Below, one piece after another: positions 31,171 to 49,411 of a stretch of 64,000 bases of DNA; the first letter of the stretch is position 1, and each line of letters starts with the position of its first letter. Under the pieces are notes generated by a model. That model saw nothing but the letters and a program-made list of their open reading frames with translations. It made no database searches and was not told where the DNA came from. Source of the stretch: Polyangiaceae bacterium (GTDB taxonomy: Bacteria > Myxococcota_A > Polyangia > Polyangiales > Polyangiaceae); NCBI GenBank assembly GCA_033763455.1, contig JANRKO010000080.1, positions 1 to 64,000 on the forward strand. Direction: 5' to 3'. The translations under genes and the position numbers were made by a program.

Positions 31171-33630
31171 TCAATGCTGAACTTTCGGTTTCCGTAAAGG
31201 AACAATGTCGGCGCCGGGTTCGGTGGAAATCTTGGGGTGGGCACGGAGCAGGCTGATAATGAGGCTCGTTCCCCAACCTTCTTCGCTACGCAGTGTGAGC
31301 CGGCCGTGGCTATTTTCGACAGCCGCTGCCAACGCCCCGAGGCTCGCAAGCCCTGCGGGGGGATCTGCTGGCGCTGTCAACGTGCGTTTCAGCGCAGCTG
31401 TCGGCACGTCCAATCGTAGATCAAGGAGTGAGACTTCCACCCTCAGGTGTCGCTCACGGATAGTGACGACGGGTCCCGTGCCCGAGCCCTCCCGCGCTGC
31501 CGCTTCGACTAAAAATTGCTCCAATGTTGCGCTGAGTTCCGGGCGATGACCGATGACTTGAGCAACGACACGGGGGGCTTGAAGGCGGATATTCCCCTGG
31601 TTACGTCGCGCCACGGTATCTACAACGTCCGTTATTACCTGCGCCATGGAAAACACGGTGAGCACGTCCCGTCGCTCCGGAAATGCTTGAACATTGTCGC
31701 CTTCCTCACTCACCTGATGGCGCTGCACTTCCACCACAGACCCCACGAAGCCGGCTCCGCCTTGTTCCTCGCTCTCCATCGCCTTGACTGAAATCACGAG
31801 CGCTCGCTGGCTTCCGTCACGTCCGAGTGTTGGCAGTTCCACTAGCCAGCCCTTATCGGCCACTTCACTGAGGCTTGGTGCTGGCAGGCTGAGGCGGGAG
31901 CTTACCGCGCCGAGTAGGCGCGTGAGGGGCAATGTGCGCACAGGGATCATGCCGCTAGGTCCGGCCTCCGGAAGCTCGAGCTCACAATACCTCAACAGAT
32001 CGAGCACTGCGCGGCCCGCGATGCGAATGTCGCCAAAGGCGTCAGCATACATTAGCCCCACCGGTGCCGACCGCAAAACGCTGCTGAAGAGCTGAAGTTC
32101 GTCCAGTGCGGTGCGGGCCTGTGTGATCAAATTGTGAGAGTCCGCTCCAGCTTCGCCGACTAAAAGCCCGGCGGTACGCCGCCAATCATCCTGACGCCCG
32201 CGCTCAATTCGGCGTTTTCTTATTAGCTCGGCAACATCGTTACCAAGCCGCAACGACAATTCTGGCTTTTTCGCGTAGGAATCTGCGGCGTTCTTGCCGA
32301 TCAAGAAGATGTAGCCTTCGAGTTCGCCCGCTGCCTCCAGGGGGATAAACAGCATCGGCACTCCCGCCATCACCACGTAGTCGTGCAGCACCTTGATGGC
32401 GCGCGCGCCAGTCTCGTCGACGTACGGAGTGCGGCGAACGTCTCTGCGTCGTTCGCGAATAATGGACTCGTTGAGGTCGCCGTGTGGCCACACTTTCAAG
32501 CGCCAACTAAACGCAGGGAGCTCCGCAACAAGGACTGCGTCCGCCGGGTGAGATTGCGCGATTCTGTCAGCTAGGCGCTCAAAGAATTCAGCGTCTGGGA
32601 GTGCGTGTGTTCCTGGTGTGCCCAAGGTTGCGCCTGCGAGCAGCTTCTCGGCGCTGCTTCTCGCACGGCGTTGAGCGAACACGCGGGGAGCGTGAAGCGT
32701 GGCAGTGTGCACAAGCAACGCGAGGCCAAGGCTTGGAAGTGGCCACAAAACGCCAATTCCGCGGGCTCCAAAGAGCGAGGCCGAAACGAGTAGCAAGTAG
32801 ATCGCGAGAGGAGGCAGGTGCCCGAGCGAACGCCACCGCCTATGCCGCCCGAGGAACAGGAGAAAAGCGCCCGTTCCAACTGCTACGAGGGCAACTTGCC
32901 AAAACACCGCCGGCTCGCGTGGCCCTTCCTCGATGGCACCCGCCATGGAAGCTGCCACTCGGGCACTCAAGGGGCCAAGTGCGTTCACGTGATTTCCGTC
33001 GATGAGTGCGTCGTCCAGTGAAAGCAGCGCGATCCGCCGCTTCAAGACGTCCGCTTCGACCCGACCCTCGCGTAGATCGGTCAACGAGATGCGTGGCACC
33101 GATTCCCAAGGGCGCGGGGAAACCCAGCGTGTTCGGGCGAACCCTAAGGGTTTCAGGCGATGGAAATCTGCAGGGGGCGCGTAGAATCCCAATATCCTTC
33201 CGTCGCTGTCACGCAGCAGCGTTGGAGCGGGCAGCACTGCTAGGTTCGACACCACGGCGTCGCCTTGCGGTCCGCACAGTTTGTCGAGTGGAGGCAACAG
33301 TAGGCTGAAGCGCGCCCCCCCAACGTGTGCGGCTTTCACTACCGAAGTAAAACAGTCGGAGCGGTGCGCCTCGCTTGCGTCGACGGATACCACGACAACG
33401 CTCGTTGGCGGTTCGCGCTTGGCCGTCAGCTCCAAAAGGGTGCGGTGTAGCCAGTGGTCAACGAACCCGAGCGGAGAACTGACCGCGACGAGTACGAGCA
33501 AGGTTGCTGCTAGAGCATCGAGTGAGACGTAGTCCCAGAACGGGTGCTGTCGTCGAACCGCGGACGCCATAGGGCGCGGCAGCAAGAACTTGCGCGGCAC
33601 CTTTCCCGGCTTCGAACGGAACCATTTCAT
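31171..33630 (-). CDS. CHASE2-domain membrane sensor with a degenerate histidine-kinase-like C-terminus
   Basis: TM, then PPTSVVVVSVD...LKRRIALL CHASE2-like region, three TMs, GAF/PAS-like segments, HATPase-like tail (ENSHGRLTLRSEEGWGTSLIISL) without a recognisable H-box or N-box. Confidence 0.65.
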   Translation of the reverse strand: MKWFRSKPGKVPRKFLLPRPMASAVRRQHPFWDYVSLDALAATLLVLVAVSSPLGFVDHWLHRTLLELTAKREPPTSVVVVSVDASEAHRSDCFTSVVKAAHVGGARFSLLLPPLDKLCGPQGDAVVSNLAVLPAPTLLRDSDGRILGFYAPPADFHRLKPLGFARTRWVSPRPWESVPRISLTDLREGRVEADVLKRRIALLSLDDALIDGNHVNALGPLSARVAASMAGAIEEGPREPAVFWQVALVAVGTGAFLLFLGRHRRWRSLGHLPPLAIYLLLVSASLFGARGIGVLWPLPSLGLALLVHTATLHAPRVFAQRRARSSAEKLLAGATLGTPGTHALPDAEFFERLADRIAQSHPADAVLVAELPAFSWRLKVWPHGDLNESIIRERRRDVRRTPYVDETGARAIKVLHDYVVMAGVPMLFIPLEAAGELEGYIFLIGKNAADSYAKKPELSLRLGNDVAELIRKRRIERGRQDDWRRTAGLLVGEAGADSHNLITQARTALDELQLFSSVLRSAPVGLMYADAFGDIRIAGRAVLDLLRYCELELPEAGPSGMIPVRTLPLTRLLGAVSSRLSLPAPSLSEVADKGWLVELPTLGRDGSQRALVISVKAMESEEQGGAGFVGSVVEVQRHQVSEEGDNVQAFPERRDVLTVFSMAQVITDVVDTVARRNQGNIRLQAPRVVAQVIGHRPELSATLEQFLVEAAAREGSGTGPVVTIRERHLRVEVSLLDLRLDVPTAALKRTLTAPADPPAGLASLGALAAAVENSHGRLTLRSEEGWGTSLIISLLRAHPKISTEPGADIVPLRKPKVQH

Positions 33631-33701
33631 AGGGGGCTACCAGGACTCCTACGGCCGGGTTCGGCTATTTTTTGGGGGTCTTCTGCCGATTGAGCTCCGC
33701 A

Positions 33702-33779: not shown

Positions 33780-36700
33780 GTGCGCGGATCTGCCGAAGTG
33801 GAGGACACGCTTGTGTTGGAATTTCTCGGGATAGGCACCTCCCACGCCTGGAACGTATTTCCGGACAACGGTTTGGACCGGAGCTTGCACGCGCCGATCT
33901 TGATCGGGCTTTTGTTCCTCACGTTTTTCCGAGAAACGTTCGGCTGGAGCTACGCGGGATTGGTCGTGCCCGGCTACCTCGCCGTGGTGGCGCTTTCGGC
34001 ACCTGTTACCGGTGCTCTCATCGTTGGAGAAGCGATCTTGGCTTACTGGTTGGCGTACGCCGTTGGGCGTCTCCTACCGCGGTTGGGGCTGTGGTCGCCA
34101 CTATTTGGCAGAGAGCGATTCCTGCTGATCATACTGGCCTCTTTGGTGGTGCGGCTTGCGCTGGAAGGATACTGGATCAGTTGGTTGGTAAATCGCTACG
34201 GACTCACCCATTCTCGCGAGCTCCATAGCATTGGGCTGGTGCTCGTGGCCCTTTTGGCCAACGCGTTCTGGAATTCAGGGTTCGTTGCAGTCTTACCGCG
34301 ACTCGGCTTGGTCGTAGGGGCTACGTACTTGGTTGTTGGCCAGGTATTGCTTGCCCATACAAACTTCACGCTAGCGCGCTTTCAAGTAGCCAATGAGAGC
34401 GTGTCCCTCGCTTTTCTGGAGACGCCCCACGCCCACATTATTTTGGCGCTCGGTGCCATCATGGCAGCGCGGGATAACGTCCGCTACGGGTGGGATTATA
34501 ACGGAATTCTAGTGCCCGCCCTCCTGGCGGTAGCCTGGTATTCGCCCACCAAGCTCCTAACAACCGTCTTGGAGGCGCTGCTGGTGTTGTGGCTCTCCAA
34601 GCTCGTCACGCAATATGGGCCGCTTGCGCGCGTGCTGATGGTTGGCTCGCGGCGTATGTTGGTTGCCTATTCCGTTGGGTTCTTTACCAAATGGGTGGTT
34701 GGTTTTGCGATGATGCGGCTTCTGCCGGGCGTGCAACTATTGGATTTTTTCGGGTTCGGATACCTATTGCCGTCGCTCTTGGCGATCAAAATGTGGAACA
34801 CGGGGCGCATTCCCACCGTTATTATGCCGACGCTTCAGGTTTCGCTGGGTGCCTTCATCGCGGGAAACGCCCTGGCTTATAGCCTTCGTTTGGCTGAAAA
34901 CGCGTTGGCTTCTGCGCAGCCCGGATCGACGATTGAAACATCACGCTCCGTTGCCTGGGATCTTCTACGCGCGGACAGTGCACCGGAGCCGCGCCCACAG
35001 GCCCTGCGAGTGTTTGAGAGATCACCCGCTCAACAGGTGCTGCAAGTTATCGAGGCGATTCCTGGGGCGAGCGCAGATCTTGGAGGCATCGAATGGGAGC
35101 CGAGCATTCGAGTCGCTAAAACCCCAGATAAATGGTGGGTTTTGGGCCCGCGCTCGCTCGACCCGGACAACGATTGGGTATGCCCTCGTGTCGCGCTATC
35201 GTTCGATAGCAAGCAGAACTGGCTCGTAGTGGCCGAAACTTCCGAGGCCGCTTCTGCTAACATCGTTGTGGCATCTGAGCTTGCGAAGAGGATCTCTGCC
35301 AGAGCTGTAGTGGTGCGTTCCACACAGCCGGCGTTGGCACCCTTTGACGATGCCTTCATTGACGAGCTAAACCAACGTCTCAATATCGAGTTGGTGATCA
35401 TTGTGCGCCAGAGTGCGGGGCCCGCTCGGCTGGAGCTTTCCGGCAAGTTGCCTGAGGGGCTCGATGCGGCGTGGATGCGGCGGACTGTGGGCGGGCAGTT
35501 GGCGCTTACCTGGCGTGCGCCGAGCGTGGGGAAAAGTCCCACGGACAACGCCCCGATCCTGTTGATTGACCGAGCAACCGCCGAGACAACTGCGGCGGCT
35601 TTGCTTTCCGCGCCGGAACCGGAACTTTGGGGCCCGAGCTTGCGCGAGGTGTTGGACGTGAAAATGCCAGCACTCACCTCCGTACTTCCCGGCCACCACA
35701 GGAATCCAACCATCGAAGAGCTTCGCATTTTCTCCAAAGGTGTTGGTCGAACCTTCCTCCGCTTCGCTAGAGGTGAGGCAGCCCCGACGGCCTATAGTCG
35801 AGCGATAGCTGCAGAGCTCGGGCTTAGAACGGCCAAGGTCAGCGATCCGACTGGAGACATGTGGGCGTTGTTCTCCCCACCGGGCGAAGAACGAGAGGGG
35901 CATGCTACGTGGATAGTTCGAGGTCCAGGGAAGGTTGAAGATCGAGGCCGGCGGCCGGTATTGCTCGAAGTTCCGAGTCCGCTGTGGGAACGGGGAACGC
36001 TTAGCGCCGCGCTGTCGTTCTCTCGCGCGCTTGGTTCACAATCGATGCTCCTATCCGGTTCCTTTCCCACGGCCACCCCAGATGGCAGTGCGGACGTGCG
36101 TAGTGTTTTCGGCAAGCGTTCTTACTTTCAACATATTCACGAGCTTTGGATACAACAGCAGGGCTTGGTTCTGAGCGTTCAAGGCATTGCACCTTCTCGT
36201 ATCGCGAATGCTGACGTGATCGTGACGTTGCCGCAGGACTTGAGCGACTTCGGTCGCGCACCCAGCTGGGCACATCCGCTACTGCAACTTCTAAAAGGCA
36301 GTGGGCTGGAGGTAGCGCCGGTCGATGGCTCCCTTGAAAGAGCGCCATTCGAAGCCACGGCTCAACCGACGATGGCCTACGCCCGGCGCTTCGGCGATCA
36401 ACAAATGCTGATTGCCTGGCTCACCGCCGAGACGCGACTACGCTTTGTCGCTGCGGACGAACAAGACGCCTTGACGCAGGCTAGGTTGCTGCGAATGGGC
36501 AAGCCCGTGGCCGCTCTCTCTGTGGCGGAGCGGGCCCGGTTCCTGGCTGTGTGTAAGGCCGGCGTTAGCGGCTGCCCGAGCCTTGGCTCCGAATGTTCTC
36601 TCGACACTCAAGCCCTCGCGATTGGAAGTTATGTGCGTGAACGCAATCCGTACTGGTTACGGAGTGTGCTTTCAGCAGAGCGAGGCTGCTTTGCCGAAGT

Positions 36701-36881
36701 TGCGCAGGATGCTGCGGGGGGAACGCTCTTTGCGCTTTTGGCTAACGCCAAAGAGGTTCGTTTGGTTCCACTGCGTACTGGGAGTCTGATGACGCTCGGG
36801 CGCCCCCTGCGGGACCCACCCAATCTTGAGCAGGCGGTTGCGCTAGGGCTCTCGGCCATCGCCATTGGGGCTGTGCGATGA
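33780..36881 (+). CDS. capC: Poly-gamma-glutamate synthesis CapC/PgsC tandem-domain fusion with a large C-terminal extramembrane region (start uncertain)
   Basis: AGLVVPGYLA, LFGRERF and SIGLVLVALLAN match CapC motifs; second repeat NGILVPALLA, VGSRRM, GFGYLLPSLLA; about 660 extra aa. Confidence 0.85.
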   Translation: MRGSAEVEDTLVLEFLGIGTSHAWNVFPDNGLDRSLHAPILIGLLFLTFFRETFGWSYAGLVVPGYLAVVALSAPVTGALIVGEAILAYWLAYAVGRLLPRLGLWSPLFGRERFLLIILASLVVRLALEGYWISWLVNRYGLTHSRELHSIGLVLVALLANAFWNSGFVAVLPRLGLVVGATYLVVGQVLLAHTNFTLARFQVANESVSLAFLETPHAHIILALGAIMAARDNVRYGWDYNGILVPALLAVAWYSPTKLLTTVLEALLVLWLSKLVTQYGPLARVLMVGSRRMLVAYSVGFFTKWVVGFAMMRLLPGVQLLDFFGFGYLLPSLLAIKMWNTGRIPTVIMPTLQVSLGAFIAGNALAYSLRLAENALASAQPGSTIETSRSVAWDLLRADSAPEPRPQALRVFERSPAQQVLQVIEAIPGASADLGGIEWEPSIRVAKTPDKWWVLGPRSLDPDNDWVCPRVALSFDSKQNWLVVAETSEAASANIVVASELAKRISARAVVVRSTQPALAPFDDAFIDELNQRLNIELVIIVRQSAGPARLELSGKLPEGLDAAWMRRTVGGQLALTWRAPSVGKSPTDNAPILLIDRATAETTAAALLSAPEPELWGPSLREVLDVKMPALTSVLPGHHRNPTIEELRIFSKGVGRTFLRFARGEAAPTAYSRAIAAELGLRTAKVSDPTGDMWALFSPPGEEREGHATWIVRGPGKVEDRGRRPVLLEVPSPLWERGTLSAALSFSRALGSQSMLLSGSFPTATPDGSADVRSVFGKRSYFQHIHELWIQQQGLVLSVQGIAPSRIANADVIVTLPQDLSDFGRAPSWAHPLLQLLKGSGLEVAPVDGSLERAPFEATAQPTMAYARRFGDQQMLIAWLTAETRLRFVAADEQDALTQARLLRMGKPVAALSVAERARFLAVCKAGVSGCPSLGSECSLDTQALAIGSYVRERNPYWLRSVLSAERGCFAEVAQDAAGGTLFALLANAKEVRLVPLRTGSLMTLGRPLRDPPNLEQAVALGLSAIAIGAVR

Positions 36882-39307
36882 TTCGCTGGGTTGGTGTGAC
36901 ATTGGTCGTCTTGTTAACTGCGCTGGTGCTGTACAAAGTGCGAGAGCACGAGGGGGATACCGAGCTCGTAGATGAGATCCTCGCTTACGAATTGGTTCCA
37001 GGTCGCGCCTTGGAGGTTCCCCTCTATTCCGACATGACCGAAGTCAACTTTACCAGTTGGATGCTCTTGCCGGATTCTTATAGCCGCGATCCCTCGCAAA
37101 GATTCGAGTATGGCGTGCAGCTCTCCCTGATCGATGCCGCAGGGCATATGCTGAGCCAGCAGGTGATTCGTTTGGTGAGTCGGGTCAGCGGAGATCCAGC
37201 TGAACCAGCTGAGCTTGGTAGATTCTCCGCTCGGCTCGTGGATGGTTCCGAACGGGTCACCGACTCACGCACCAAGGTCGTGGATACGAGTGCACTGAAC
37301 GGGCGTGGGCGTCTCCGCCTCACCACTGTGCCAGGTGAACCGGATACAGTGCTGGTGCGCTTGGCTTACCCCGAGGAAAGAAGCGAGCTCATGCAGCGGA
37401 TCGCCGCCCGAACGTTAGCCCTCGGCAAGCGTCGCCGGCTGGTTGAGCAGAGCTTCAGTCTTGGCTTTTCCGATCTGCCAGAAGAAGCACGTTTGCGCGC
37501 AGTCACGGCCTGGGGCAGACGCCTTACTGCGGCTGGGCGCGCGGATACTGATTACGTGACGAGGCGGCTCCTGCTGGGATCGCTTCGCTCCGATACTGCG
37601 CCATACCAAGCAGAGCAGGTGGGTGTTCCGCTGGGCCCACTCCACAACGCCACATTTAATCTCAAGCATAGTGTCACGTTGCGTATTGAGGCGGAGCCCG
37701 GTCGTCAATTTTCCGTACGCGAGGGGGACGCGAAGCCAAGAGAGGTGTTAGTTGGCGACAGTGGGCGAGTCGAACTGAAGGCTTCTGGTGAGGTTCCGCG
37801 TACACTCAATATCGAATCCAAGAGCAACTTGAACGCGCAGTTCAGCCTACCCGCTAGCGATTCATCGGCCCTCATTGGCGATCTTGAGCCGATGTTGAAA
37901 GGTGGCCGTCTCTGGCTATCTCCGGACGTGCGGAACGCTCGCTTCTATCGGCTGGATCCTGCTGAACCTGTCCAATTCTCGATTGCGCCTCTGCAAGCCG
38001 TTCTGAGGTTGGTGGTGCGTGGGCTCGTTTTTGACTCCACGGCGCCTAAGCCTGTGTGGGTAAGAGTATTGTGGGATGGCCAGGCTCCAGACCAAGTTCC
38101 CGAGCTACAAGCCGAGCTCCCAGTCAGTCCCACTGATGACGCAGATGGAAGTCACGTGACGGCTGAGAAGAAGGTGTTGCTGCGCCTTCCGGCCCATGTG
38201 CGAAAGGTACGCGTCGTAGGCGACGGCAGTACCGTTGTGGCGGCTTTCAGCGAAGAACCGGGAGTTGCCGAGAGTCGCATTCACCCGGCGTATGATGTGC
38301 CTCTGGCGGCCAACCAGGTGTGGCGCGCTGCCCCCTACGATATCCGGCGCTTCGCCGGCCTGCGCCCTTCCAACGAAGAAGCACTTGTTGGGGCGGCTAG
38401 AGTTGCGCGCGTAGGGTCTCAGGTTCGCATCGAATCCTTGGCGGAAGGTGTAGGCGAGCGCATTGCAGAACGCGTCCTCATTCCTCTAGCGGCACCGATG
38501 GTGCGTTCCCTTTACACACCCACTTGGGCGGCACGCGGGCGACCTTCAATGGAGGCGATCTGGAGCGTGCAGCAGGGAGAACCAACAAGCGAGCAAGTCT
38601 ACTGGGTTCCTCAGTCGGGGGAGAGAGCCGCTCGGATGCCGTTGATCTACAGGGCGGATCCACGAAGCCTTGGCGGAACACTTCGGGTCACGAGTGCTCA
38701 GAAGTCGATCGCTGAGCGCCCGCTCCTTGCTCTCGATGGTGAGCTCACGTTACGGGGCCTGCCGGCGAGCCTTCCGCTCGGTGTCTCGGGCTTGGGTGCG
38801 GGCGGCATACTTCTAATCGGTGCCGCCCCGGACGCAGGTGGCAAAGTTATAGTGCGAAGCCAGAAGGTCTTCGAGCTGACCTCCCAGCGGCCCTTGCTTT
38901 TCTCCTTTCAGGTGAAGGAAGGGGAGCTGCTGTCGGCCTGGCTCAACCTAACCTCTTTGAACAAGCGCCAAAGCTACCGAGTAAAGTACGCGATCGACCG
39001 GGGCAAGCCTCGACCCGCGCCGCAGCGCTTCTTTCGCAGGATGAGCCAATGGGAGGGTGAGCTTTTGGGTTCGACGGGAAGCAAGCTCGGCCTGATCTGG
39101 GAGGCTCCGCGAGAAGGCGAAGTTAACGCGCTGTTCTTGGATCACATCGGGCTGGCGCGCATTGAGTTGGGTGATGACTTGGCGCCCGGTGTGCATACTT
39201 TGGAGCTTCGGCTAATCGGACCGGAGCCCTTGTGGGTACGGGCCGTGCTTGCGGGGCGAGTGGCCGCCCCATCAGAAGATTTGCCTGCGCTTGCTGAGGA
39301 GGAATGA
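36878..39307 (+). CDS. Hypothetical N-terminally membrane-anchored, beta-rich protein of the cap-like operon
   Basis: Single N-terminal hydrophobic helix; ATGA overlaps with both neighbours; 809-aa ORF. Confidence 0.75.
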   Translation: MIRWVGVTLVVLLTALVLYKVREHEGDTELVDEILAYELVPGRALEVPLYSDMTEVNFTSWMLLPDSYSRDPSQRFEYGVQLSLIDAAGHMLSQQVIRLVSRVSGDPAEPAELGRFSARLVDGSERVTDSRTKVVDTSALNGRGRLRLTTVPGEPDTVLVRLAYPEERSELMQRIAARTLALGKRRRLVEQSFSLGFSDLPEEARLRAVTAWGRRLTAAGRADTDYVTRRLLLGSLRSDTAPYQAEQVGVPLGPLHNATFNLKHSVTLRIEAEPGRQFSVREGDAKPREVLVGDSGRVELKASGEVPRTLNIESKSNLNAQFSLPASDSSALIGDLEPMLKGGRLWLSPDVRNARFYRLDPAEPVQFSIAPLQAVLRLVVRGLVFDSTAPKPVWVRVLWDGQAPDQVPELQAELPVSPTDDADGSHVTAEKKVLLRLPAHVRKVRVVGDGSTVVAAFSEEPGVAESRIHPAYDVPLAANQVWRAAPYDIRRFAGLRPSNEEALVGAARVARVGSQVRIESLAEGVGERIAERVLIPLAAPMVRSLYTPTWAARGRPSMEAIWSVQQGEPTSEQVYWVPQSGERAARMPLIYRADPRSLGGTLRVTSAQKSIAERPLLALDGELTLRGLPASLPLGVSGLGAGGILLIGAAPDAGGKVIVRSQKVFELTSQRPLLFSFQVKEGELLSAWLNLTSLNKRQSYRVKYAIDRGKPRPAPQRFFRRMSQWEGELLGSTGSKLGLIWEAPREGEVNALFLDHIGLARIELGDDLAPGVHTLELRLIGPEPLWVRAVLAGRVAAPSEDLPALAEEE

Positions 39308-40326
39308 TGAATGCTTGGAAGCTTACTGCTGTGTCCTTAGCCGTCGTTCTCACCGGCTGTCGCGGTTGCGAGCCGGACAAACGTGACGAATCCACCGAGA
39401 TGACTCCGCCGCCCCCAGCTTCGTCAGCTCCGCCTGTGCCGTCTGCCACTTTAGGCGAGGAAAAGCCGCAAGCCGGCCCCCTTCCGCTACTGGAGCATTT
39501 GCGCTTCAGCCGCCGCAGCGAAGGCGTGCAGTTCGTGAATCCAACGCCTGAGGAAGGTCGAGCCTTTGTCGGTTGGGTAACGGCGGTGAGCCGAGCTGCT
39601 TGGTCGGATCGACTACCCGGCGCGGCCCCACCGGATGGCTTCGAAGGTGTGTTGACCCAGCTTGGAACGCTCTGGCTGCTGCGGGAGAAATCAGACCAGC
39701 GGCGTGGTGCGGGCGCGTACGTACTTCGGGCAAGCGCGGGGCGTCCGCTCATCCTGCAGGCGCCCCACACCTTCTTCGATGCAGGCACTCTGCCCATTGC
39801 TACGCGACTCTTCGAACGGCTGCAAGCCAAAGCCCTGTTGATCAACACCGTGCATCGATCGGGTGGCCAAGAAGGCGAAGGCGAGGAGGAAAAAGAGAAA
39901 GCCCGGAGCGGTAAGTCAGAAGCTGATGTCGCTCACAACCGTGAGAGCTTCTATTCGTTGGTTCATGAATCGTTGCTCACGGTAGATCCCACGCTGTTGG
40001 TTATTCAAATTCATGGTTTTCGAGATGCCAAAGTGCCCGGTGTCGATCTTGTGGTGAGCGCAGCAGACACGCAGGCTGATATCAGACCGATGGGGAGAAT
40101 CATGAAAGGCCTGCTGGGTGCGAACCGAGTTCGACTCTATCCCGAAGAAATTAAGCTTCTCGGTGGAACCACGAACGCTCAGGCGTTTATCAGCCGCAAA
40201 AAGCGAACCGCCTTCATTCACCTTGAGCTGTCCGCAAAGCTCCGAAAAGCGCTCGAAAAGGACGACATTTTCTTCGCAAAATTCCTCCGAGCATTTTCTC
40301 AGGCAATCCCGGAGGGCCGTCGTTGA
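39304..40326 (+). CDS. Lipoprotein with a Zn-dependent amidohydrolase fold (gamma-PGA hydrolase/N-formylglutamate amidohydrolase-like)
   Basis: Lipobox VLTGC; Pro-rich linker; QAPHTFFD, IQIHGF and FIHLELS give the His/Asp/His metal ligands and catalytic Glu arrangement of this fold. Confidence 0.65.
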   Translation: MMNAWKLTAVSLAVVLTGCRGCEPDKRDESTEMTPPPPASSAPPVPSATLGEEKPQAGPLPLLEHLRFSRRSEGVQFVNPTPEEGRAFVGWVTAVSRAAWSDRLPGAAPPDGFEGVLTQLGTLWLLREKSDQRRGAGAYVLRASAGRPLILQAPHTFFDAGTLPIATRLFERLQAKALLINTVHRSGGQEGEGEEEKEKARSGKSEADVAHNRESFYSLVHESLLTVDPTLLVIQIHGFRDAKVPGVDLVVSAADTQADIRPMGRIMKGLLGANRVRLYPEEIKLLGGTTNAQAFISRKKRTAFIHLELSAKLRKALEKDDIFFAKFLRAFSQAIPEGRR

Positions 40327-43300
40327 CGATGCGGTTGAACGCTCGTGTTGCCCGCCACCTGTTCGTGAGTTTGGTCTTTATTGTAGGCTGGCTTACGTCG
40401 CAGCGTGCGAACGCCTGGGACGCTCTCGCCTGGGGTGTGCCGCAGCAGGTGCGCGTGTTTCGCTGGGAGGATGCACGCATGCCTGCCATGCTACTGCGAA
40501 GCGTCGATCCACTGGTGGATGCCGAGCTGTTGGATCAAGAGCTTTTGCTCTCTCCAGTGAAACCGGGGCAAGAGGTGCGTATCTTTGGTGATCCGGTTGA
40601 AGTTGGCCTCGGAAGTGGTAGTCGAGACTTACCAGACGTGATCACCTGGCAAGCTCCCGGGGCGTGGTTGCGGCGAGTTGCTGCAGGTGTGCATGAGCTC
40701 AGAGTCCCCACCTATGAGAGTGCGCGTTGGGTGGTCGTGCGCTCGCCATACCCGAAAACCAGAGTACGCTTGGAGGTCGCTTTGCCGGAGGTCAGCAATA
40801 TCCTCTGGTACCGTGCAGAAGAGAATGTGTGGCGCATGCTCGAAGGCGGACCCGTGCCAACGCTTTTGGGACCTCTAGCATCGCACCAGAGCGAAATACG
40901 CTTTCTCGACGCGGCGCGCCGAGCATTCCCCGAAGGCGTGGGCAGGGAGTTCCTGCAGAGCCATTGGCTCGAATTCGCGTGGCAGGAAAGGGGATTGGGG
41001 CGACCCTACTTCGTGTCGGCACAGGTGGGCCCTGCGCCGGCGCCGGTGCCGTTGTTGCAGCAAGCGAGCGCACCATGGGTCCCGCAGCCCGATGGCTCCT
41101 GGGTCACTTCGCTGACTGAGGGGCACACCGCAGCAGTGCATTCCGATGAGGCCGAGGTCGTAACGCTCTTCGTCCGCGCCCACGCAGTAGGTCAGATCCG
41201 GATCGTCGTCCGCCAAGGCGCGGGGCTCGTCGCTGTCATGAAGCAGGACATTGCCAGGAATGCAGAAGATCCCGCGAGGCTGACTCCAGCGACAAGATTT
41301 CGGTTGCCGATGGCTCCTGGTACGCCAATTTCGATCCAAGTTCAGCGAGGAACTGCGGAGCTCAGCATTTCGGGGTACCGAGCGCGGCCAAGCATCACTG
41401 ACGGCACTCCGATACGGCAACGCACCGAGCTCCTGCGATTGGGCATGCGGGGCAAAGGGGCTTCAGCCGCAGAGCGTGTGGCGCGTGTTCTCTCTAAGCT
41501 AGCGCTGTGTCGTTGCCCAGAAGCGGTAGAGGAAGGGCAAGAGCTGCTAACCATAACAACCGGAAAGGTACGGGCGTTGGTCCTGTTTGAGCTGATCTAT
41601 CAGGGGATTGGCTTGGTGGATGTGAATGTGCTCCTGCCGCAATTTTGGAAGGCGACGGCCGGGCTCGAGGAAACTGACCGCTTAGCATTTCGGCGACAAC
41701 TCTTGCAGCGTCTCACGGAGGTCGATGCTGAGCCCCTACAGGTGGAGCATCTGGAGGATGTGGCGATTCGCTCCGGTTTTGTCGAAACCGAAGCACTGAG
41801 TGAAGACGCGTTCGCCACCGCGGCACTGGCCGAGATGATCGCCGTTCCTCGGGACGGTGCACGTCCGTGGTTCGCTGCAGCCGCAGAGGTGCGGGCGGCA
41901 GAGAGGCCCGAGCGGGCGGATCTTGTCGAGCTCGGACGTCGCTCTTGGTTTCGCACGGCGCCATGGTCGTGGATCGATCCAAGCGGCAGCGAAACGATCT
42001 CCAGGGTGCGCAATGTATATGGGGCTCGCCCCGAAGAGCTCTGCGAGAGCCAAGGAGATCGCGGCCCGCGCTGGCTCAGGCTAAGCCATACGCCAGAACC
42101 CCTCGCGATAAGAGCCGATAGTGGCACCCATGCGCGCGTGCTGCTGCGGAGCGAGGCGGAGGTTCCGGCAGCGGACACAAGCGTGCAGGTGGGCGCTACT
42201 CAGATTCATGTTCACGCGGGTATAGGCCTTTACTCAAGCATGGGGCTTGCACCCGGCACACACGAAATTCATGTCCAAAGTGGCCCGGACATCCTCGCCC
42301 AGCTTCCACTTGCCCAGCCGGTGCCGTGCGGGAGGTTGCGTGAGATTGAGCGTTGGGTTCCCATACGCCAGAGCGTGCACTTCGCGATCACCCGCGGTGA
42401 GGTGGGTACGGTCGGTAGGCTCCTTCTAGATCTAGATCAGGCCAACCCCAAATTCGGCGAAGTCGAGGTGCGTGTACAGAACGAAGTGCACCGTGCGTGG
42501 GCGCGTGCACCTGCAACAGGAGCCGTGGAGTTTCCGCTGCCGAAGGATGTTGAGGCGTTTGAGGTTCGGTCTGGCGAACCAGTCCTCGTGCGTGCTCTCC
42601 AGCGATTGCACAAGATGCCAAAGGCCCAAGCTCCGCGGGCACTTGCCAAGCTTGACGTCCCCTTGAACGAACCCGAGCTCCTGGCTCAGGTTCGGCGGAG
42701 CACGCGTGCCCTTGGCACCTCTAAGTCTGCCAAGGAGCGAGCTACCCTGCGTTTGGCTCGCGCGAAAGCTCTACAAGATCTAGGTTACTTGCGCCTCGCG
42801 GCGGTGGATCGAGTGCGCGCGAATCAGCCGGAATCCGATACGGACCGGTCGGATGCCACAGCTGAGTGGTTGCTTCTTCCTCCGGGTAGTCCACCCGTGG
42901 TGGCGTTGAACCTCTTAGCTAAAATCCCGCCCCTACCGCTGCCAATTCCAAGCAAGACACTAGAGCTCGCGTTCCGGCAACGCCAGCTGGGCGCTCCTCC
43001 GGTCGATGTTATCTCCACGTTGGGCGCGTCCGCACAGTACTCCAGTGCCGTGGACGCCTTGCTACTGGCTGTGCTTGCCGAACAGCTCGGACTGCTAGAG
43101 GTGTCGGCTTCGGCGTACGAGCGAATTGGCCACGCGCTGCGCTCGGGCCATGCGTTGGCTCACTCGGCAGAGCTGCGAGCAGATTTCGCCGAAAAAGAAC
43201 AAAGCCTCGACCAAACGATGACCGCCTACATCACGGCAAGGCAAGCCGAGGCGTCGCTCGTGCCGGCGGGGGATGTTCTAGCGCGCATGGATCGCGCGAT

Positions 43301-45152
43301 TGAGTGGGTAAACGTATCCGTTCAAGGGGCTGCGGGGGTTCGTTGGCTCGAAAACGAAGGCCGTGGCGATGGCAACACCACTCTTGGGGAACGCACGCGC
43401 AGAGCGCTGACGGACGCCCCAGCGGAAGCAACCAGCAGCGGGAAAGATCCCATTGAGATTAGCCTTTTGGGGATGAAATCGAGAAGTTTGAGAGTGCATT
43501 CCTTGTGCCACGCCAGCGATGGTCAAAACGAATACTGCAGTTTCCGCTTTGAAATAGATCATCGCCCTGTCGTTTGCGGCGCATCGCCCGTAGCCTCAAG
43601 TGCGCGGGACTTCGTTGCTCTCCCTACGGAGTGTGAACTGACGGTTCCGGAGGGGGCAGCACGCTTAAGCGTGTTTCCGCCAGCGGACCGCGACGTCTTC
43701 GGGTGGATAAACGCGCAGGAGAAGACCGTTACGGGTTTTGCACCCTTGGTTCGAGCCACTCGGTGGACGGAGATCGACGTTCCTCGACCCATGGAGTTCC
43801 AGGTGGTTGGGCCAACGGTACTCAAGATCCAGACACGTGGTTTGATCCCAGGACCGCCAAGCTTTCGTGTGGACATAGTAGAGCCCGGTGGGCAGAGCTC
43901 AGAAGCCATGGAGCCAGTGTTGTCCTCCGCGGTAGATCCGGTGTCTGTATTGAGGGATGTGGGCTCGCAGGTGACCGTGGCTGGGCGACAATACGTAACG
44001 CTCCCACTCAAGGGACAATATCGCGTTCGTCTGTCCACACCGAGCGGGCGTATTTTGGCAAAGGTCGAAGCGGCTTTTGCCAAAGGCTTTCCGCGTGCGC
44101 GGACCGAGGATCCGAAGGAGGATGCTGCACCTGTCGTGCAGAGTGGCGCGGCTCCAGGGCCTGCAGTTTGGCCGGCGATTGGGCTGGATCCGAAGCCAGG
44201 AGCACTCACGTTAACAGCATTTTCGAAGTACATCGATGACCGGCGCTTGCTCGACGAGGACGCTGTTTTACGCACGAATTACGCCGAGTTGGGTGTCGGC
44301 GCGGGGCGTGAAGTCATCGACGGAACGTTGTTGGGGGCAGTCTCCCTAGCTCGACGTTTTCGCGCCGGGAGCGACAGCACCCACGCACGTTCGAGTTGGT
44401 CACTCTCTTTGGGCAATGGCTTACCCGGTGCTTGGCTCGACACTTCCTTTACCGTCCAGCGATTGCAAGAATGGCGTTGGGGTGCGGCGCTGGGCACAGG
44501 CGTATCTTACGGCGTCCCAGTTACCGAGGACTTTAAACTGATACCCGAACTAGCGCTCGCGTTGCGGAGAGTCGATGCAGGCGCCAGAGGTAACGGTGAA
44601 GTTGATTCGGATGTCTACTCCCCTTACGGCAGAACGCGGCCCGCGACGTACGACGCCATCCTGAGCGCGTTGCACCAGCCCTGGGTCGACGCGAAAATGA
44701 GTTACCGAGCTCGCGCACGGCTTTTGCCCTCATTCCAGGGGCTCGACCGCGTCGATGGCCGAGCGCGCTTCAACGCTCTCGTTTTGCGTGATTACTTTCC
44801 TTGGCTAGGTGCGGACTTGGAACTCAGCTACCGTCCCGTTTCACCATTGCGAACGCTGAGCTTTTGGCGTGCCGAGGTTAGCCCTGGGGCGTCGTTCTGG
44901 TGTTGGACGCATGCCTCGGGTCGCTTCGTACTGAGCGGATTGTTGGCCTATTCTGAAGACTTCCCGCGCAGTAGGGGTCGCGGTCGAGAGTTGTCGGCTC
45001 AACTCGGACTTCGCTATGACATGACTTGGCTTCGCGGTCTCTCGGATTACAGCGCCGACGAGCGGCCTTTTCAAGACAGGCTTGAGGAAGGTTCAGCGCC
45101 ACCTCGTCGGGGAGTTGCTCCGCGGGATCCGAACTGGAGCGAGCCGCCGTGA
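40323..45152 (+). CDS. Large exported protein with TPR-like helices and a probable C-terminal outer-membrane beta-barrel
   Basis: Signal peptide ending ANA-W; helical TPR-like stretches; from about 44205, amphipathic strands (YAELGVGAG, WLDTSFT, LGADLELSY, LSAQLGLRY); overlaps both neighbours (start TTG 40323 or ATG 40329). Confidence 0.65.
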   Translation: MTMRLNARVARHLFVSLVFIVGWLTSQRANAWDALAWGVPQQVRVFRWEDARMPAMLLRSVDPLVDAELLDQELLLSPVKPGQEVRIFGDPVEVGLGSGSRDLPDVITWQAPGAWLRRVAAGVHELRVPTYESARWVVVRSPYPKTRVRLEVALPEVSNILWYRAEENVWRMLEGGPVPTLLGPLASHQSEIRFLDAARRAFPEGVGREFLQSHWLEFAWQERGLGRPYFVSAQVGPAPAPVPLLQQASAPWVPQPDGSWVTSLTEGHTAAVHSDEAEVVTLFVRAHAVGQIRIVVRQGAGLVAVMKQDIARNAEDPARLTPATRFRLPMAPGTPISIQVQRGTAELSISGYRARPSITDGTPIRQRTELLRLGMRGKGASAAERVARVLSKLALCRCPEAVEEGQELLTITTGKVRALVLFELIYQGIGLVDVNVLLPQFWKATAGLEETDRLAFRRQLLQRLTEVDAEPLQVEHLEDVAIRSGFVETEALSEDAFATAALAEMIAVPRDGARPWFAAAAEVRAAERPERADLVELGRRSWFRTAPWSWIDPSGSETISRVRNVYGARPEELCESQGDRGPRWLRLSHTPEPLAIRADSGTHARVLLRSEAEVPAADTSVQVGATQIHVHAGIGLYSSMGLAPGTHEIHVQSGPDILAQLPLAQPVPCGRLREIERWVPIRQSVHFAITRGEVGTVGRLLLDLDQANPKFGEVEVRVQNEVHRAWARAPATGAVEFPLPKDVEAFEVRSGEPVLVRALQRLHKMPKAQAPRALAKLDVPLNEPELLAQVRRSTRALGTSKSAKERATLRLARAKALQDLGYLRLAAVDRVRANQPESDTDRSDATAEWLLLPPGSPPVVALNLLAKIPPLPLPIPSKTLELAFRQRQLGAPPVDVISTLGASAQYSSAVDALLLAVLAEQLGLLEVSASAYERIGHALRSGHALAHSAELRADFAEKEQSLDQTMTAYITARQAEASLVPAGDVLARMDRAIEWVNVSVQGAAGVRWLENEGRGDGNTTLGERTRRALTDAPAEATSSGKDPIEISLLGMKSRSLRVHSLCHASDGQNEYCSFRFEIDHRPVVCGASPVASSARDFVALPTECELTVPEGAARLSVFPPADRDVFGWINAQEKTVTGFAPLVRATRWTEIDVPRPMEFQVVGPTVLKIQTRGLIPGPPSFRVDIVEPGGQSSEAMEPVLSSAVDPVSVLRDVGSQVTVAGRQYVTLPLKGQYRVRLSTPSGRILAKVEAAFAKGFPRARTEDPKEDAAPVVQSGAAPGPAVWPAIGLDPKPGALTLTAFSKYIDDRRLLDEDAVLRTNYAELGVGAGREVIDGTLLGAVSLARRFRAGSDSTHARSSWSLSLGNGLPGAWLDTSFTVQRLQEWRWGAALGTGVSYGVPVTEDFKLIPELALALRRVDAGARGNGEVDSDVYSPYGRTRPATYDAILSALHQPWVDAKMSYRARARLLPSFQGLDRVDGRARFNALVLRDYFPWLGADLELSYRPVSPLRTLSFWRAEVSPGASFWCWTHASGRFVLSGLLAYSEDFPRSRGRGRELSAQLGLRYDMTWLRGLSDYSADERPFQDRLEEGSAPPRRGVAPRDPNWSEPP

Positions 45153-48100
45153 GCCTGGACGCGTTAGCTGAAGATCTGGCTCGGCGCCTCACGCCGCTAT
45201 TGCCACTATTAGATGCTAGAGTGCGCCAGCCGGCGCTGTTGGCTGTCACCGGGCGCGCCGTGATGCTCAACCATGGCCACGTGGAAACCTCATCTAGGCT
45301 GCTCGTGGGTCTGGTTCGAGCCGCTGCCGAAGCTTGTTCTGCTTTGGCGCAACATAGGAAGCAACGAGAACAAATCATCCAAACGTACCATGGCAAGGAG
45401 AGCCCAGAGGAAAGGCGCCAGGTCATTACCGACGCGCTTCCGGCACTCGCATCCTCGCCCGCCCAGTTGGCCGCCGATCTAGCAGCTACGCGGCGAAACT
45501 TAGGTATCGAAGCCCTGATGGAGCGCCTACAAGAGCGCCTCTCCGATGACGTGGACCAGGTGGAAGTCGCCTACAAGGCAGCGCGCGCCGTCGTAGCGCT
45601 CATCTCAGCCGAGGCGCAGAGTCTTGCCGGACATGAAGTCGAGGCCCTTTTGGCCCTCGCATTCAAACACGTGTGCGCGAACCACCACGATGCCATATCG
45701 ATTGTGGCTTTGGAGTTTACCGAAGCACTTCTCGGTACTTTGCGAGCGAACGACCGCTTACTCGTGCTCACGCCGGATCGTTACACAGCTTTTCGCAAGC
45801 TCGCCTTAGAGCCGAACCTCAATCCATGGGTCCGCGTGGCAGCTCTGGGCGCATGTATTGTGGCGGCTCCGAAGCATGGCGTAGCGCTTCTCGAACAGGT
45901 ACTCGATGACCGAACGGGTAGGGACGCCCAGATCCTGCGACATCGGGCGGTAAAACGCCTACTCGAGGTGGAACCAGAGAGGTCGCGGCTACTCGCCCTC
46001 ATTCGGCAGATCCGAAGCGATCCGAGCGAACACGTGCGCCAAGGCCTCTGCTGGTTTCTGGCGCGAACGAACGATGGCGCACCAAATCTCGGAGCGCTGT
46101 GTCTGAGTGATCCGAGCCCGAGCGTACGTGGCTACGCGTTGCGCGAACTTTCTCGAAGTGCGGCGGCAAGCGGACAGGGCTTGGATGTCCTCTTGGCGAC
46201 GGTTCTTGAACTACTGAAGAAGGCGGCAACCGGCACGGACGCCCCCATCGTTCTGCGCGTCTTACTGGAAGAAATTACCCGGCACGCGACGGCATCGCCA
46301 CGGGCCTTTCCGCTGACGCCTTTCGTGAAGCCTCTAGAGGCGCTACTTGCGGCGACGTCAGTCGCGAGCAGCCTCAAGGCCAACGTCGCTGAGCTGCTCC
46401 TCAAGCTTGAGATATACTCGGATGCCGAGTTGTTAGATCTCTGTCGCGAGTTTGAGGCCCATCTTGAGGAGCTTGAGGAAGGGCAGAGCCGGATCGTGGA
46501 TTTGCCGAGCCAGGCTTCCGAAGAGCAGGTGGAAAAGGCTCTTATGGTGGCCGGCAGGCATGATTTGTCTATTTCCGCTCGCTGGGCAGGCTCCGGAAGT
46601 CTCGTCATTATGCGCGGTGAGCCAAGAGGCTGGCGCCTTTGGCGGACGCTTTTCGAAGTCAGAACTCCGGCACCCGATAAACGCCAGGGGTATGCTCACT
46701 CCAAAGCACGGGTTCGGTTTGGTACCATCTACATTGCTCCTCGCGGCTTGGCTGAGGTAACGCCCACGCGGGTTCCTGGTGAACGCCAATGGTACCCGGA
46801 CCTAGGCGGTTGGGGGGAATTTCTGCCGAGGGTCGATGACCTCCTGTTCGTTTCTGGCCTGAGCGCACGCGCACGGCGAATCGTCACCGCATTTGGGACG
46901 TTGGTGATCTCCCCTCCCGTAAGTTTCTACAGAAGGCTCAAGAACTACTTTCAGCTCACCTTCCATTACGAGCGCTGGAGCCAGCTGCGCGAACGATCTC
47001 TCCGAGCAAAGCAGCCGGATGAGCGGCTTCAGTTTTCTGAGCACGTTGCCTCGTTGGGGTACACTGTCCGGCTATCTAATACCGAAAGCGAAGCCTCTGG
47101 TGTAAAGTGCGATAGGCGCCCAGCTCACGCTGAGCATTACCTATCCTTGGCCCTGCCATTCTGGTTCGACGACTTGATCAACTCGGGGCTCTCGTCGTCC
47201 GGCAACAGTGCCTGGCATCTGGCGATTGTTATCTGGCTAGCATTTTGTGGAATGATCGTGCGTTCGGCATGGATTCGGCGAAATATCGAGCGGGCGCGGA
47301 GGCGCATACCCCTCAGGATCGGAGGTTGGGGTAGCCGAGGAAAGAGTGGCACCGAGCGGATCAAAGCCGCCCTGTTCCATGCCATGCGCTATGAAACAGT
47401 CGTAAAAACGACAGGCTGTGAGGCAATGTTCATTCATGCGCGGCGTGATCAGCCCGCGCGCGAGATGTTTGTCTACCGACCGTACGACAAGGCAACCATT
47501 TGGGAACAGCGCAATGTGCTTGAGACGGCTTCGCGCCTCAAGGCGCAGGTGTTCTTATGGGAGTGCATGGCCTTGCAACCTGTATTTGTGCGTCAGCTCA
47601 TGCTCGATTGGATGCAAGATAAGCTGGCTACGCTCACCAACGCCTATCCAGATCACGAAGACATCATGGGCCCCTCAGGGGAAGATGTAGCGCGGGTGAT
47701 TGCGAGCTTTATGCCCGAAAATGGCGTTGCCTTCACCGCGGAAGACCAAATGTTTCCGATCATTGCCGATTCGGCACGGCGCCGCCATACCGAGCTTCAC
47801 ACGGTGACCGACACGGATGCGCAACTCTTGCCTAAAGATCTGCTCGATCGCTTCCCCTATCAGGAGCACCCAAAGAACATCGCACTCGTTTTGGCGCTGG
47901 CTGCCCATCTCGGAGTTGAGCCTGATTGGGCCATGGTAAAGATGGCTGATTACGTTGTTCCGGATCTGGGGGTGTTGAAAACTTATCCGGAAATCGTCGT
48001 CAGAAATCGAAAGATGAAGTTCTCTAACGGCATGAGCGCCAACGAACGTGCGGGGTTTCTGTCCAACTGGCAGCGGCTTGGTTTTGATGTTTTGGACGCG

Positions 48101-49411
48101 GAAAATCAGCCTGAAATCGTCAGTGTGGCCGTTGTGAACAACCGAGCTGACCGGGTGCCGCGCTCACGGGTGTTCGCTGAGCTCCTGGTAAAAGATGCCG
48201 CGTGCGACGTCATTGTTCTTATCAATTCAAATTTGATCGCGATGCGACGGTTCCTTCTGGAGAATGTTGCGCAGGTAACCCTTGGCGTCGCGTTTCAGGC
48301 CACAGGAGGCCCTGCGGCCGTCGCCCAGGCAACCTCGGTATTAGACGAGCTTTGGCAGAGGTTCCGCATTCTGAATAAGCGTTCGGTGGTTCGACGCAAG
48401 TTGGAGCTTATTGTTCTCGCGAGCGGCCTCGACATTGCTCTCGTTGAAAAGCTCTGTGAAAAACTCGATGAAGTGTCGGTGCCCGAGATCGAGGGCCTCG
48501 TGCGTGCGGCGAGTCCGGCGGCTCCGCCAGGTTCGGAGGCGCTGGACCCAAGTGTTCCATCTTCGCTCCCAAGTGACGAAGACACGCTTCGTCACATCGT
48601 CCAAATGGTGGAGTCTTATCAGATCGCCGTGCAGGCGCGGCAGGCCGTTCTTTCGGCCGTTGAACAAGGTCAAGCTGGGCAAGCGCGACGAAAGCTGGAT
48701 GAGGCGCTTTTGAAGCTTCTAGAGCGGCGAATTTGCGTTCTCATGGACGTGCGCGCCAATGGCGATCAGGTAATCGACTTCATCGCCGACCAGGTGCCTC
48801 CCGGGCACCGTGCACATTTGCTTGGGTGCCAGAACATCAAGGGAACCGGGCTTGATTTCGTCTATCGCTGGATCTCTATGGAGCAGGTGTTTCGTACTCT
48901 GGAGGGCCTTCGGTCAGAGCCGGATCGGCGCGCGGACCACTTGCAGGCACTCATCGAACACACTGACTACGGTTACTTCGATGCGCGGGACGCCCACGCA
49001 CGGCTCTTAGAGTTGGCACACGACCCGGGGTTTGATGGCCTCCGGGCAGAGTTGAGCGTAGCGGAGCGGCACCTAGCCGGAGTTGTGGCTGCGCGCCTTG
49101 CCAAGCTCAAGGGGGGCTCGACAACAACACGGCTGAGCCAAGTACTCGGACACATCGAGCCCTGGTTCGACCACCTGGACTCCATCCATCGCACGCGGTT
49201 CGCTCAGCGCGTATTGCGCCAGCTTTGCGCACAGCAGATCGGGCAGGGGCGCGCGGCAGAACTTCTGCGAGAGGTCACGGCACGTGGGAAAGGCGGGTGG
49301 CTGTACGCGATGGCCAAAAGTAGGCTGCCTCGGCTCACCGCAAAAGGGGCCCCAAAAACAAGAGGGGCCCCAAAAGCAAAAGAGGCCCCGAAGAAGTCCG
49401 ACCGAGGTTAA
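45149..49411 (+). CDS. capB: Poly-gamma-glutamate synthase CapB/PgsB (Mur-ligase fold) fused to an N-terminal HEAT-repeat region
   Basis: RIPLRIGGWGSRGKS P-loop (47330), VKTTG, WECMALQP, TNAYPDHEDIMGP, NGMSANE, NNRADRVPRS and LGCQNIKG are collinear with CapB motifs; HEAT motifs DPSEHVRQG and DPSPSVRGYA. Confidence 0.88.
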   Translation: MSLDALAEDLARRLTPLLPLLDARVRQPALLAVTGRAVMLNHGHVETSSRLLVGLVRAAAEACSALAQHRKQREQIIQTYHGKESPEERRQVITDALPALASSPAQLAADLAATRRNLGIEALMERLQERLSDDVDQVEVAYKAARAVVALISAEAQSLAGHEVEALLALAFKHVCANHHDAISIVALEFTEALLGTLRANDRLLVLTPDRYTAFRKLALEPNLNPWVRVAALGACIVAAPKHGVALLEQVLDDRTGRDAQILRHRAVKRLLEVEPERSRLLALIRQIRSDPSEHVRQGLCWFLARTNDGAPNLGALCLSDPSPSVRGYALRELSRSAAASGQGLDVLLATVLELLKKAATGTDAPIVLRVLLEEITRHATASPRAFPLTPFVKPLEALLAATSVASSLKANVAELLLKLEIYSDAELLDLCREFEAHLEELEEGQSRIVDLPSQASEEQVEKALMVAGRHDLSISARWAGSGSLVIMRGEPRGWRLWRTLFEVRTPAPDKRQGYAHSKARVRFGTIYIAPRGLAEVTPTRVPGERQWYPDLGGWGEFLPRVDDLLFVSGLSARARRIVTAFGTLVISPPVSFYRRLKNYFQLTFHYERWSQLRERSLRAKQPDERLQFSEHVASLGYTVRLSNTESEASGVKCDRRPAHAEHYLSLALPFWFDDLINSGLSSSGNSAWHLAIVIWLAFCGMIVRSAWIRRNIERARRRIPLRIGGWGSRGKSGTERIKAALFHAMRYETVVKTTGCEAMFIHARRDQPAREMFVYRPYDKATIWEQRNVLETASRLKAQVFLWECMALQPVFVRQLMLDWMQDKLATLTNAYPDHEDIMGPSGEDVARVIASFMPENGVAFTAEDQMFPIIADSARRRHTELHTVTDTDAQLLPKDLLDRFPYQEHPKNIALVLALAAHLGVEPDWAMVKMADYVVPDLGVLKTYPEIVVRNRKMKFSNGMSANERAGFLSNWQRLGFDVLDAENQPEIVSVAVVNNRADRVPRSRVFAELLVKDAACDVIVLINSNLIAMRRFLLENVAQVTLGVAFQATGGPAAVAQATSVLDELWQRFRILNKRSVVRRKLELIVLASGLDIALVEKLCEKLDEVSVPEIEGLVRAASPAAPPGSEALDPSVPSSLPSDEDTLRHIVQMVESYQIAVQARQAVLSAVEQGQAGQARRKLDEALLKLLERRICVLMDVRANGDQVIDFIADQVPPGHRAHLLGCQNIKGTGLDFVYRWISMEQVFRTLEGLRSEPDRRADHLQALIEHTDYGYFDARDAHARLLELAHDPGFDGLRAELSVAERHLAGVVAARLAKLKGGSTTTRLSQVLGHIEPWFDHLDSIHRTRFAQRVLRQLCAQQIGQGRAAELLREVTARGKGGWLYAMAKSRLPRLTAKGAPKTRGAPKAKEAPKKSDRG
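49343..49396 (+). repeat. Imperfect 18-bp tandem repeat x3 at the capB 3' end (KGAPKT/RGAPKA/KEAPKK)
   Basis: aaaggggccccaaaaaca / agaggggccccaaaagca / aaagaggccccgaagaag. Confidence 0.75.

Follow-up and report, generated by a model that had tools for sequence, protein, structure and literature searches.

A Candidate Synthase-Dependent Poly-Gamma-Glutamate Secretion Locus in a Polyangiaceae Genome

The Locus among Described Systems

Poly-gamma-glutamate (PGA) is made in Bacillus by the PgsBCAE/CapBCADE proteins (TIGR04012, TIGR04011, and PF09587); PgsB and PgsC polymerise, and transport is credited to PgsA/PgsE (PMC5751247). Two-membrane bacteria, members of the Myxococcota included, carry a pgsB-pgsC-pgsW cassette (TIGR04332). 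Fusobacterium nucleatum is cited as the first Gram-negative PGA producer (PMC4497714), a Cloacimonadota preprint (10.1101/2025.11.11.687785) presents a capB-capC-pgsF operon of three genes as the usual arrangement in Gram-negative producers, and a capsule survey models PGA systems on CapABCDE only (PMC5542703). How PGA crosses the outer membrane is unanswered in the literature searched, although CapB and CapC are listed for many diderms. Here we analyze a six-gene locus (positions 31171 to 49411) in 64,000 nucleotides from a Polyangiaceae bacterium (the window: positions 1 to 64,000 of contig JANRKO010000080.1, assembly GCA_033763455.1). The locus probably encodes a synthase-dependent PGA secretion system spanning two membranes, a reading drawn from sequence comparison and predicted structure.

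All six open reading frames (genes A to F) were found where an earlier note on this DNA had placed them. Genes B to F share one strand and, as that note had described, each is joined to the next, with a 4-nucleotide overlap at every junction (ATGA, ATGA, TTGA, and GTGA). Like the Bacillus system, the locus has CapC membrane domains and a CapB ligase whose motifs run in the same order. It differs in that CapC is present twice and joined to a pair of dead hydrolase domains; CapB is fused to a HEAT region and an extra domain and falls in a separate clade; there is no CapA in the genome and no linked GGT; and a scaffold, a PghP-like hydrolase, and an outer-membrane barrel are added. The CapA, GGT, and racemase families, which the earlier note had reported missing, gave no match among the window reading frames scanned (10, then 24; small frames such as capE were not scanned). 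CapA (PF09587) gave 0 matches in the source genome, which is 93.7% complete (the control was positive in 7 of 14), and membership in CapBCA was rejected. The source genome has two ggt genes and one racemase gene, all on contigs other than that of the window.

The pgsB-pgsC-pgsW cassette likewise pairs CapB with CapC in two-membrane bacteria, but its CapB is short, stand-alone, and in a clade separate from that of F. PgsW follows capC in 12 of 12 Myxococcota short-CapB loci tested, and none of C, D, and E was found in 20 such loci. Because the short forms thus belong to pgsBCW cassettes without C, D, or E, the present locus is a separate kind of PGA locus. PgsW (TIGR04332) had no match in the six proteins at an E value of 0.1, while the same model matched all 12 short-form neighbors; membership in pgsBCW was rejected as well. 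A search of the source genome for PgsW also gave no match, and its control was likewise silent. In two genomes the pgsB-pgsC-pgsW cassettes are flanked by DUF4136 genes (L178:11091-11735 and L180:9298-9873).

In layout the locus resembles the systems for cellulose (BcsABZC), poly-N-acetylglucosamine (PNAG; PgaABCD), Pel, and alginate, which combine an inner-membrane synthase, an anchored periplasmic partner, a hydrolase, and helical repeats with a C-terminal barrel. Here, in contrast, an amide ligase replaces the glycosyltransferase (no glycosyltransferase match in the six proteins with Pfam or NCBIfam), the hydrolase has a peptidase fold, the periplasmic arm is rich in beta-sandwiches, and the barrel has 14 strands; barrels of polysaccharide exporters have 16 or 18.

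No description of this locus, nor of any outer-membrane route for PGA, appeared in the literature searched, which largely excluded subscription papers; the earlier note likewise knew of no characterized export route. A 2015 supplement does list CapB matches of 1,051-1,414 amino acids in Sorangium, Chondromyces, Haliangium, Plesiocystis, and Methylovulum, on which the main text is silent (PMC4497714), so the core has been tabulated in print but not the system.

Co-Conservation and Distribution

None of the window proteins C, D, E, and A has a significant Pfam or NCBIfam match. Profiles built from proteins at the matching positions in relatives nevertheless recognize them (E values 2e-81 for C, 1e-56 for D, 2e-67 for E, and 3e-30 for A), with matches spanning C, D, and E almost from end to end. 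The neighborhood is therefore not due to chance, an explanation that these matches rule out.

Two sets of loci were examined. The first comprises 40 long-form CapB loci from Myxococcota, from which the detection profiles were largely built; for 33 of these the sequence extended 8.5 kb or more upstream of F, and in that subset B and C were each found in 31 loci, E in 32, and D in 28, with all four together in 28. The second came from a scan of species genomes seeded with a CapB alignment, which returned at least 568 relatives, of which 80 loci were taken and 7 duplicates of the first set dropped. Fifty of these had enough upstream DNA, and 30 had C, D, and E together; the other 20 comprise 13 Sorangium loci, 1 from Chondromyces apiculatus, and 6 further loci. 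Two of the scattered cases were examined, Sorangium So ce56 and C. apiculatus; each of these genomes has the complete set of six genes, up to megabases apart.

The association also holds at the level of genomes. At least 122 of 401 Myxococcota genomes have CapB matches (a lower bound, as a stricter first look was used), and 43, the source genome included, have the long form (E value at most 1e-70). Gene E was found in 43 of the 401, and 42 of those carry long CapB; among the 79 genomes whose CapB matches were all weaker it occurred once, and among the 279 with no CapB match never. Many genomes had contributed to the alignment behind the gene E profile and 8 had not, two candidates were scored per genome, and related genomes are not independent in these counts. 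The earlier note had named loss of linkage between the three middle genes and the capB/capC fusions as grounds for abandoning its reading; by both neighborhood and genome profile the linkage held.

The long CapB system is present in roughly one in ten of the Myxococcota sampled, with further occurrences in Pseudomonadota and Acidobacteriota; among its carriers are Polyangium, Chondromyces, Acanthopleuribacter, Methylovulum, Qipengyuania, Nitrosomonas, and Entotheonella. A search for relatives of D was positive in 17 of 401 Pseudomonadota genomes and in 3 of 201 from Acidobacteriota, and among 16 Pseudomonadota loci anchored on D another component lay nearby in 10 and none in 6 (two of them near contig ends). 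A plasmid search returned 94 records, mostly Bacillus, in all of which the CapB match was of short coverage and under 60% identity.

The source genome also contains a second, paralogous system split over contigs C5 (L174:42-11647) and C65 (L069:2304-6344). Its B is split into two open reading frames, its C is shorter, and its E, at a contig end, is without a full barrel; it has a D copy 81% identical, the opposite strand encodes another D-like hydrolase, and F ends contig C65.

Synthase, Hydrolase, and Envelope Components

The genes at either end of the five-gene run carry the synthase, in agreement with the earlier assignment of CapC-like and CapB-like proteins. Gene B (33780..36881, plus strand; 1033 amino acids) probably starts at a GTG at 33813, behind a GGAGG site (about 1022 amino acids). 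It matches PF14102 CapC in two stretches (E value 5.9e-45; 153 bits against a cut-off of 27), has nine hydrophobic peaks at residues 32-365 in the family average, and scores 75.8 against TIGR04011, under the cut-off of 96.45. The periplasmic half consists of two copies of the fold of D (residues ~385-620 and ~620-900; HHalign to D, 98.2% and 99.5%). Both have lost the zinc ligands and the catalytic Glu, and the second keeps the equivalent of Arg314 of D in 57 of 65 rows; the simplest reading of these sequences is that the dead domains bind without cutting.

Gene F (45149..49411, plus strand; 1420 amino acids) combines a HEAT region (a HEAT_2 match in Pfam) with a CapB/PgsB ligase and has a single membrane helix at 691-709. 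The ligase aligns with 22 canonical PgsB sequences over 329 columns (HHalign 100%), with all motifs collinear and a 150-residue insertion ahead of the last one; it scores 217.8 bits against TIGR04012 PgsB (cut-off 222.7). HEAT region and ligase are naturally split into two genes in four loci (L049, L050, L060, and L070). Residues ~490-620 (window 46610-47010), located after the HEAT repeats and before the membrane helix, form an Arg/Pro-rich, strongly conserved domain that matched no family and is confined to the long CapB clade. A tree of 65 ligase domains, midpoint-rooted for drawing only, groups the 43 long CapB proteins in one clade (support 100/100) about 4 changes per site from the 20 short forms and two reference PgsB proteins, both references being long-branched; the nearest relatives of F are from Polyangiaceae.

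Gene D (39304..40326, plus strand; 340 amino acids) encodes a lipoprotein zinc hydrolase of the PghP/PghL-FGase fold that likely trims or releases polymer. The earlier note had called it a Zn-hydrolase lipoprotein; the hydrolase stands, as a PghP-like enzyme, and the lipobox recurs in only 5 of 21 relatives. In VIA structure comparison the model (pLDDT 88) has as its top four matches two FGase-family proteins, phage PghP, and PghL (Z 13.1-14.2); the next row stands at 10.7, and amidases and carboxypeptidases follow (Z 9-10.7). Profile comparison favors PghP over FGase: HHalign gives 91.2% against PF05908 (PghP-like) proteins with 6 rows, and against FGase (PF05013) 2.7% with 29 rows and 1.3-1.8% with five 6-row subsets. 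PF05908 is also the commonest family match of D relatives (13 of 141; best E value 0.0011), and the window protein itself lies below Pfam detection for it. Sequence searches with D, the D alignment, B, and the CapB domain found no significant match among solved structures.

Across 141 aligned rows H155, H237, and R314 of D are invariant and D159, T182, and E308 are at least 90% conserved; aligned by motif, H155, D159, T182, H237, E308, and R314 correspond to PghL His41, Glu46, Thr79, His102, Glu165, and Arg171. PghL Arg171 anchors a polymer carboxylate, and cleavage is abolished when it is lost (PMC6506827). D thus shares with PghP and PghL (PF05908; 3a9l and 5onj) the fold (Z 13.2-13.4), the metal ligands, the catalytic Glu, the Thr, and an Arg six residues past the Glu. 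It differs in having Asp for the Glu ligand, with a spacing one residue shorter, in being without His77 and Ser80, in an extra N-terminal region, and in being secreted and encoded within a synthesis operon. Arg185 of D is invariant, and FGase has an Arg at the same position. Natural fusions join D to C in five loci and D to E in one, probably two, placing D between these two proteins; no separate D gene was found at the usual place in L034, L060, and L070. Sorangium So ce56 has a second, more distant D relative (L155:10289-11449), far from the other genes.

Gene C (36878..39307, plus strand; 809 amino acids), a likely scaffold, has a membrane anchor followed by about five periplasmic beta-sandwich modules; its one hydrophobic segment, at the N-terminus, bears out the earlier description of an anchored 809-residue protein. 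The modules resemble one another and those of E (HHalign up to 95%), and the top 30 Atlas matches of C include unnamed clusters only. C is shortened to ~260-290 amino acids in four loci; L049 and L050 have a C of 270 alongside an E of 1782 amino acids. A predicted complex of B (21-630) with C (1-250) scored 0.15, the mark being 0.32.

Gene E (40323..45152, plus strand; 1609 amino acids), the likely exporter, is secreted; a signal peptide is followed by beta-sandwich modules. The model, made from 80 sequences, covers residues 775-1609 (pLDDT 87.9; barrel mostly >90) and contains twelve helices (~783-990), two beta-sandwiches, a linker, and 14 long strands (barrel, 1296-1567), after which comes a conserved C-terminal tail. 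The barrel on which the earlier note had staked its reading is therefore confidently modeled. As for the TPR-like part of that description, the periplasmic region is mostly beta-sandwich modules, and the signs of TPR repeats are mixed: a weak TPR_9 match in 1 of 26 relatives, the 12-helix block of the model, and barrels but no TPR protein among the Foldseek matches listed. In VIA the barrel is closest to CymA (Z 18.7; root-mean-square deviation 4.2 over 263 aligned residues) and OmpG (Z 17.2; 3.6 over 231), followed by 4y25 (14.6), PelBC (14.4), and BcsC (14.1) of polysaccharide exporters, with CdiB and FhaC also within 14.1-14.6. A shared barrel fold reveals no function. A 16-strand barrel of the BcsC/PgaA type was rejected on the 14 strands of the model, and the window protein and 26 relatives have no Pfam name and no Pfam match to polysaccharide exporter families. 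Strand residues alternate, and at inward-facing positions basic residues (17.4 on average) outnumber acidic ones (11.9), several Arg being conserved; this charge would fit a polyanion weakly, because Arg is favored by GC-rich genomes. The E family numbers 1,175 clusters at 50% identity (E value 1e-10).

At both Qipengyuania loci (L151:13544-15206 and L162:3571-5270), where no E is adjacent, two genes face the end of F, one for a stand-alone outer-membrane barrel and one for a receiver-Hpt protein. This barrel, a possible substitute pore, has no detectable likeness to that of E (1.6%, two sequences).

Gene A (31171..33630, minus strand; 819 amino acids) encodes a CHASE2-type sensor and likely regulator. 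The window protein has no Pfam match; among 10 relatives scanned, CHASE2 is above the cut-off in three and weak in three more, and all HisKA/HATPase matches are below it. The architecture comprises a periplasmic sensor, membrane helices, a region we infer to be GAF-like, a PAS-like region, and a degenerate HisKA/HATPase; an RRD..R.PY motif is conserved at 395-403, and no conserved H-box phospho-His or N-box Asn is seen in a 31-row alignment. An active sensor kinase was rejected on these missing residues and the sub-threshold kinase domains. The "divergent CHASE2 sensor" of the earlier note thus keeps its CHASE2, in relatives, and appears to be a pseudo-kinase; its divergent orientation is that of the Polyangiaceae, the gene usually lying upstream on the same strand elsewhere. 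Our guess is that A is a pseudo-kinase regulator loosely like PelD.

Around the locus, an ADP-ribosylglycohydrolase gene converges on F, one base apart, followed by cupin and PhyH genes (49413-52437); these were not seen within the conserved system. A double-VWA protein like the gliding lipoprotein CglB (29059-31044) is encoded directly after A on the same strand, and a 1394-amino-acid DUF3857/transglutaminase-like/TPR protein at 4461-8645.

Proposed Mechanism, Alternatives, and Implications

In the mechanism we propose, the F ligase would add glutamate to a gamma-linked chain with ATP at the inner membrane, and the two CapC domains of B would provide the membrane passage. The dead hydrolase domains of B may bind the emerging polyanion, replacing CapA or PgsW, and C and the periplasmic region of E, which share a single repeated beta-sandwich module, may make contact and span the periplasm. 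D would cut the chain, setting its length, releasing it, or clearing stalled polymer, much as periplasmic hydrolases of the cellulose, PNAG, Pel, and alginate systems act on their polymers, and the chain would exit via the predicted 14-strand barrel of E. More speculatively, A and the HEAT region of F might control synthesis allosterically. Overall, co-conservation and the barrel model support the earlier reading of synthase-dependent PGA secretion.

Several observations weigh against it. Long CapB falls below the TIGR04012 cut-off in five of five proteins tested (four relatives at 171-201 bits), and its clade sits on a long, separate branch, ~4 changes per site from canonical PgsB; the ligase substrate may therefore differ. 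Structure comparison ties D between FGase and PghP (VIA Z 13.1-14.2), and of the PghL residues His77, Thr79, and Ser80 only the Thr (T182) is conserved. The long branch, the two PghL residues missing from D, its invariant Arg185, shared with FGase, and the conserved extra domains of F, which have no known role, would suit the same export machine carrying another product: a mixed or non-glutamate polyamide, or short gamma-glutamyl chains on a lipid, glycan, or surface-protein acceptor. We consider this unlikely, given that the ligase motifs match PgsB throughout, that the two families nearest D both hydrolyze amides formed with the glutamate amino group (in FGase, the substrate is such an amide), and that D and the second dead domain of B both retain the counterpart of Arg171.

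The best matches of the E barrel, CymA and OmpG, are 14-strand uptake channels that rank above the polymer exporters, and Q. zhejiangensis has A, B, a 257-amino-acid C, D, and F with no E in its genome and an unrelated-looking stand-alone barrel gene beside F. A polymer might accordingly be made for which E is not the exit, serving instead as a surface anchor (as Wzi does for capsule) or in uptake of fragments produced by D, with the chain staying in the periplasm or leaving by another pore. This seems rather improbable to us: E and F are translationally coupled, genomes with E but no long CapB are very rare, the long periplasmic arm of E has modules in common with C, itself anchored in the inner membrane, and the layout of E is like that of BcsC and PelB, exporters of helical repeats plus barrel that both stand in the top VIA rows. 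Least probable, in our judgment, is that no polymer is made, CapB/CapC and the hydrolase serving envelope or amino-acid metabolism (such as peptidoglycan or glutamyl-amide turnover) beside a co-regulated surface structure of C and E. It would account for D relatives without CapB, for amidases and carboxypeptidases coming next in the fold list of D (Z 9-10.7), and for the Francisella precedent, where capB and capC are dispensable for the polysaccharide capsule and capBCA has no settled function or product (PMC4688374). Long CapB was not found genome-wide in four Pseudomonadota with a D relative (L203, L206, L209, and L210), whose D-family hydrolases may serve to scavenge the polymer. Against the no-polymer reading, the ligase resembles PgsB, the hydrolase resembles PghP, and B carries two pseudo-hydrolase domains, all of which indicate one gamma-glutamyl substrate, and inheritance together is tight across phyla.

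PGA secretion across two membranes thus remains the reading we prefer. The system is real and widespread, and apparently undescribed: a known synthase core and design principle in a new combination, with three unnamed families. We lean toward regarding it as a dedicated, envelope-spanning machine for secretion of a non-ribosomal polyamide, convergent with the polysaccharide exporters, with pseudo-hydrolase guides, a beta-sandwich bridge, a PghP-like trimmer, an unnamed 14-strand barrel, and pseudo-kinase control; the product itself may be an undescribed polyamide.

The locus supplies a candidate pore, bridge, and trimming enzyme for PGA, and cultured hosts (Sorangium cellulosum So ce56, Polyangium, Chondromyces, Methylovulum miyakonense, and Acanthopleuribacter pedis) make the proposal directly testable. 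If it is correct, synthase-dependent secretion would extend from sugars to polyamides, three large unnamed protein families would be assigned, and export parts would become available for polymer production in Gram-negative hosts; a glutamate polymer would then be expected in the matrices of myxobacteria and methanotrophs.

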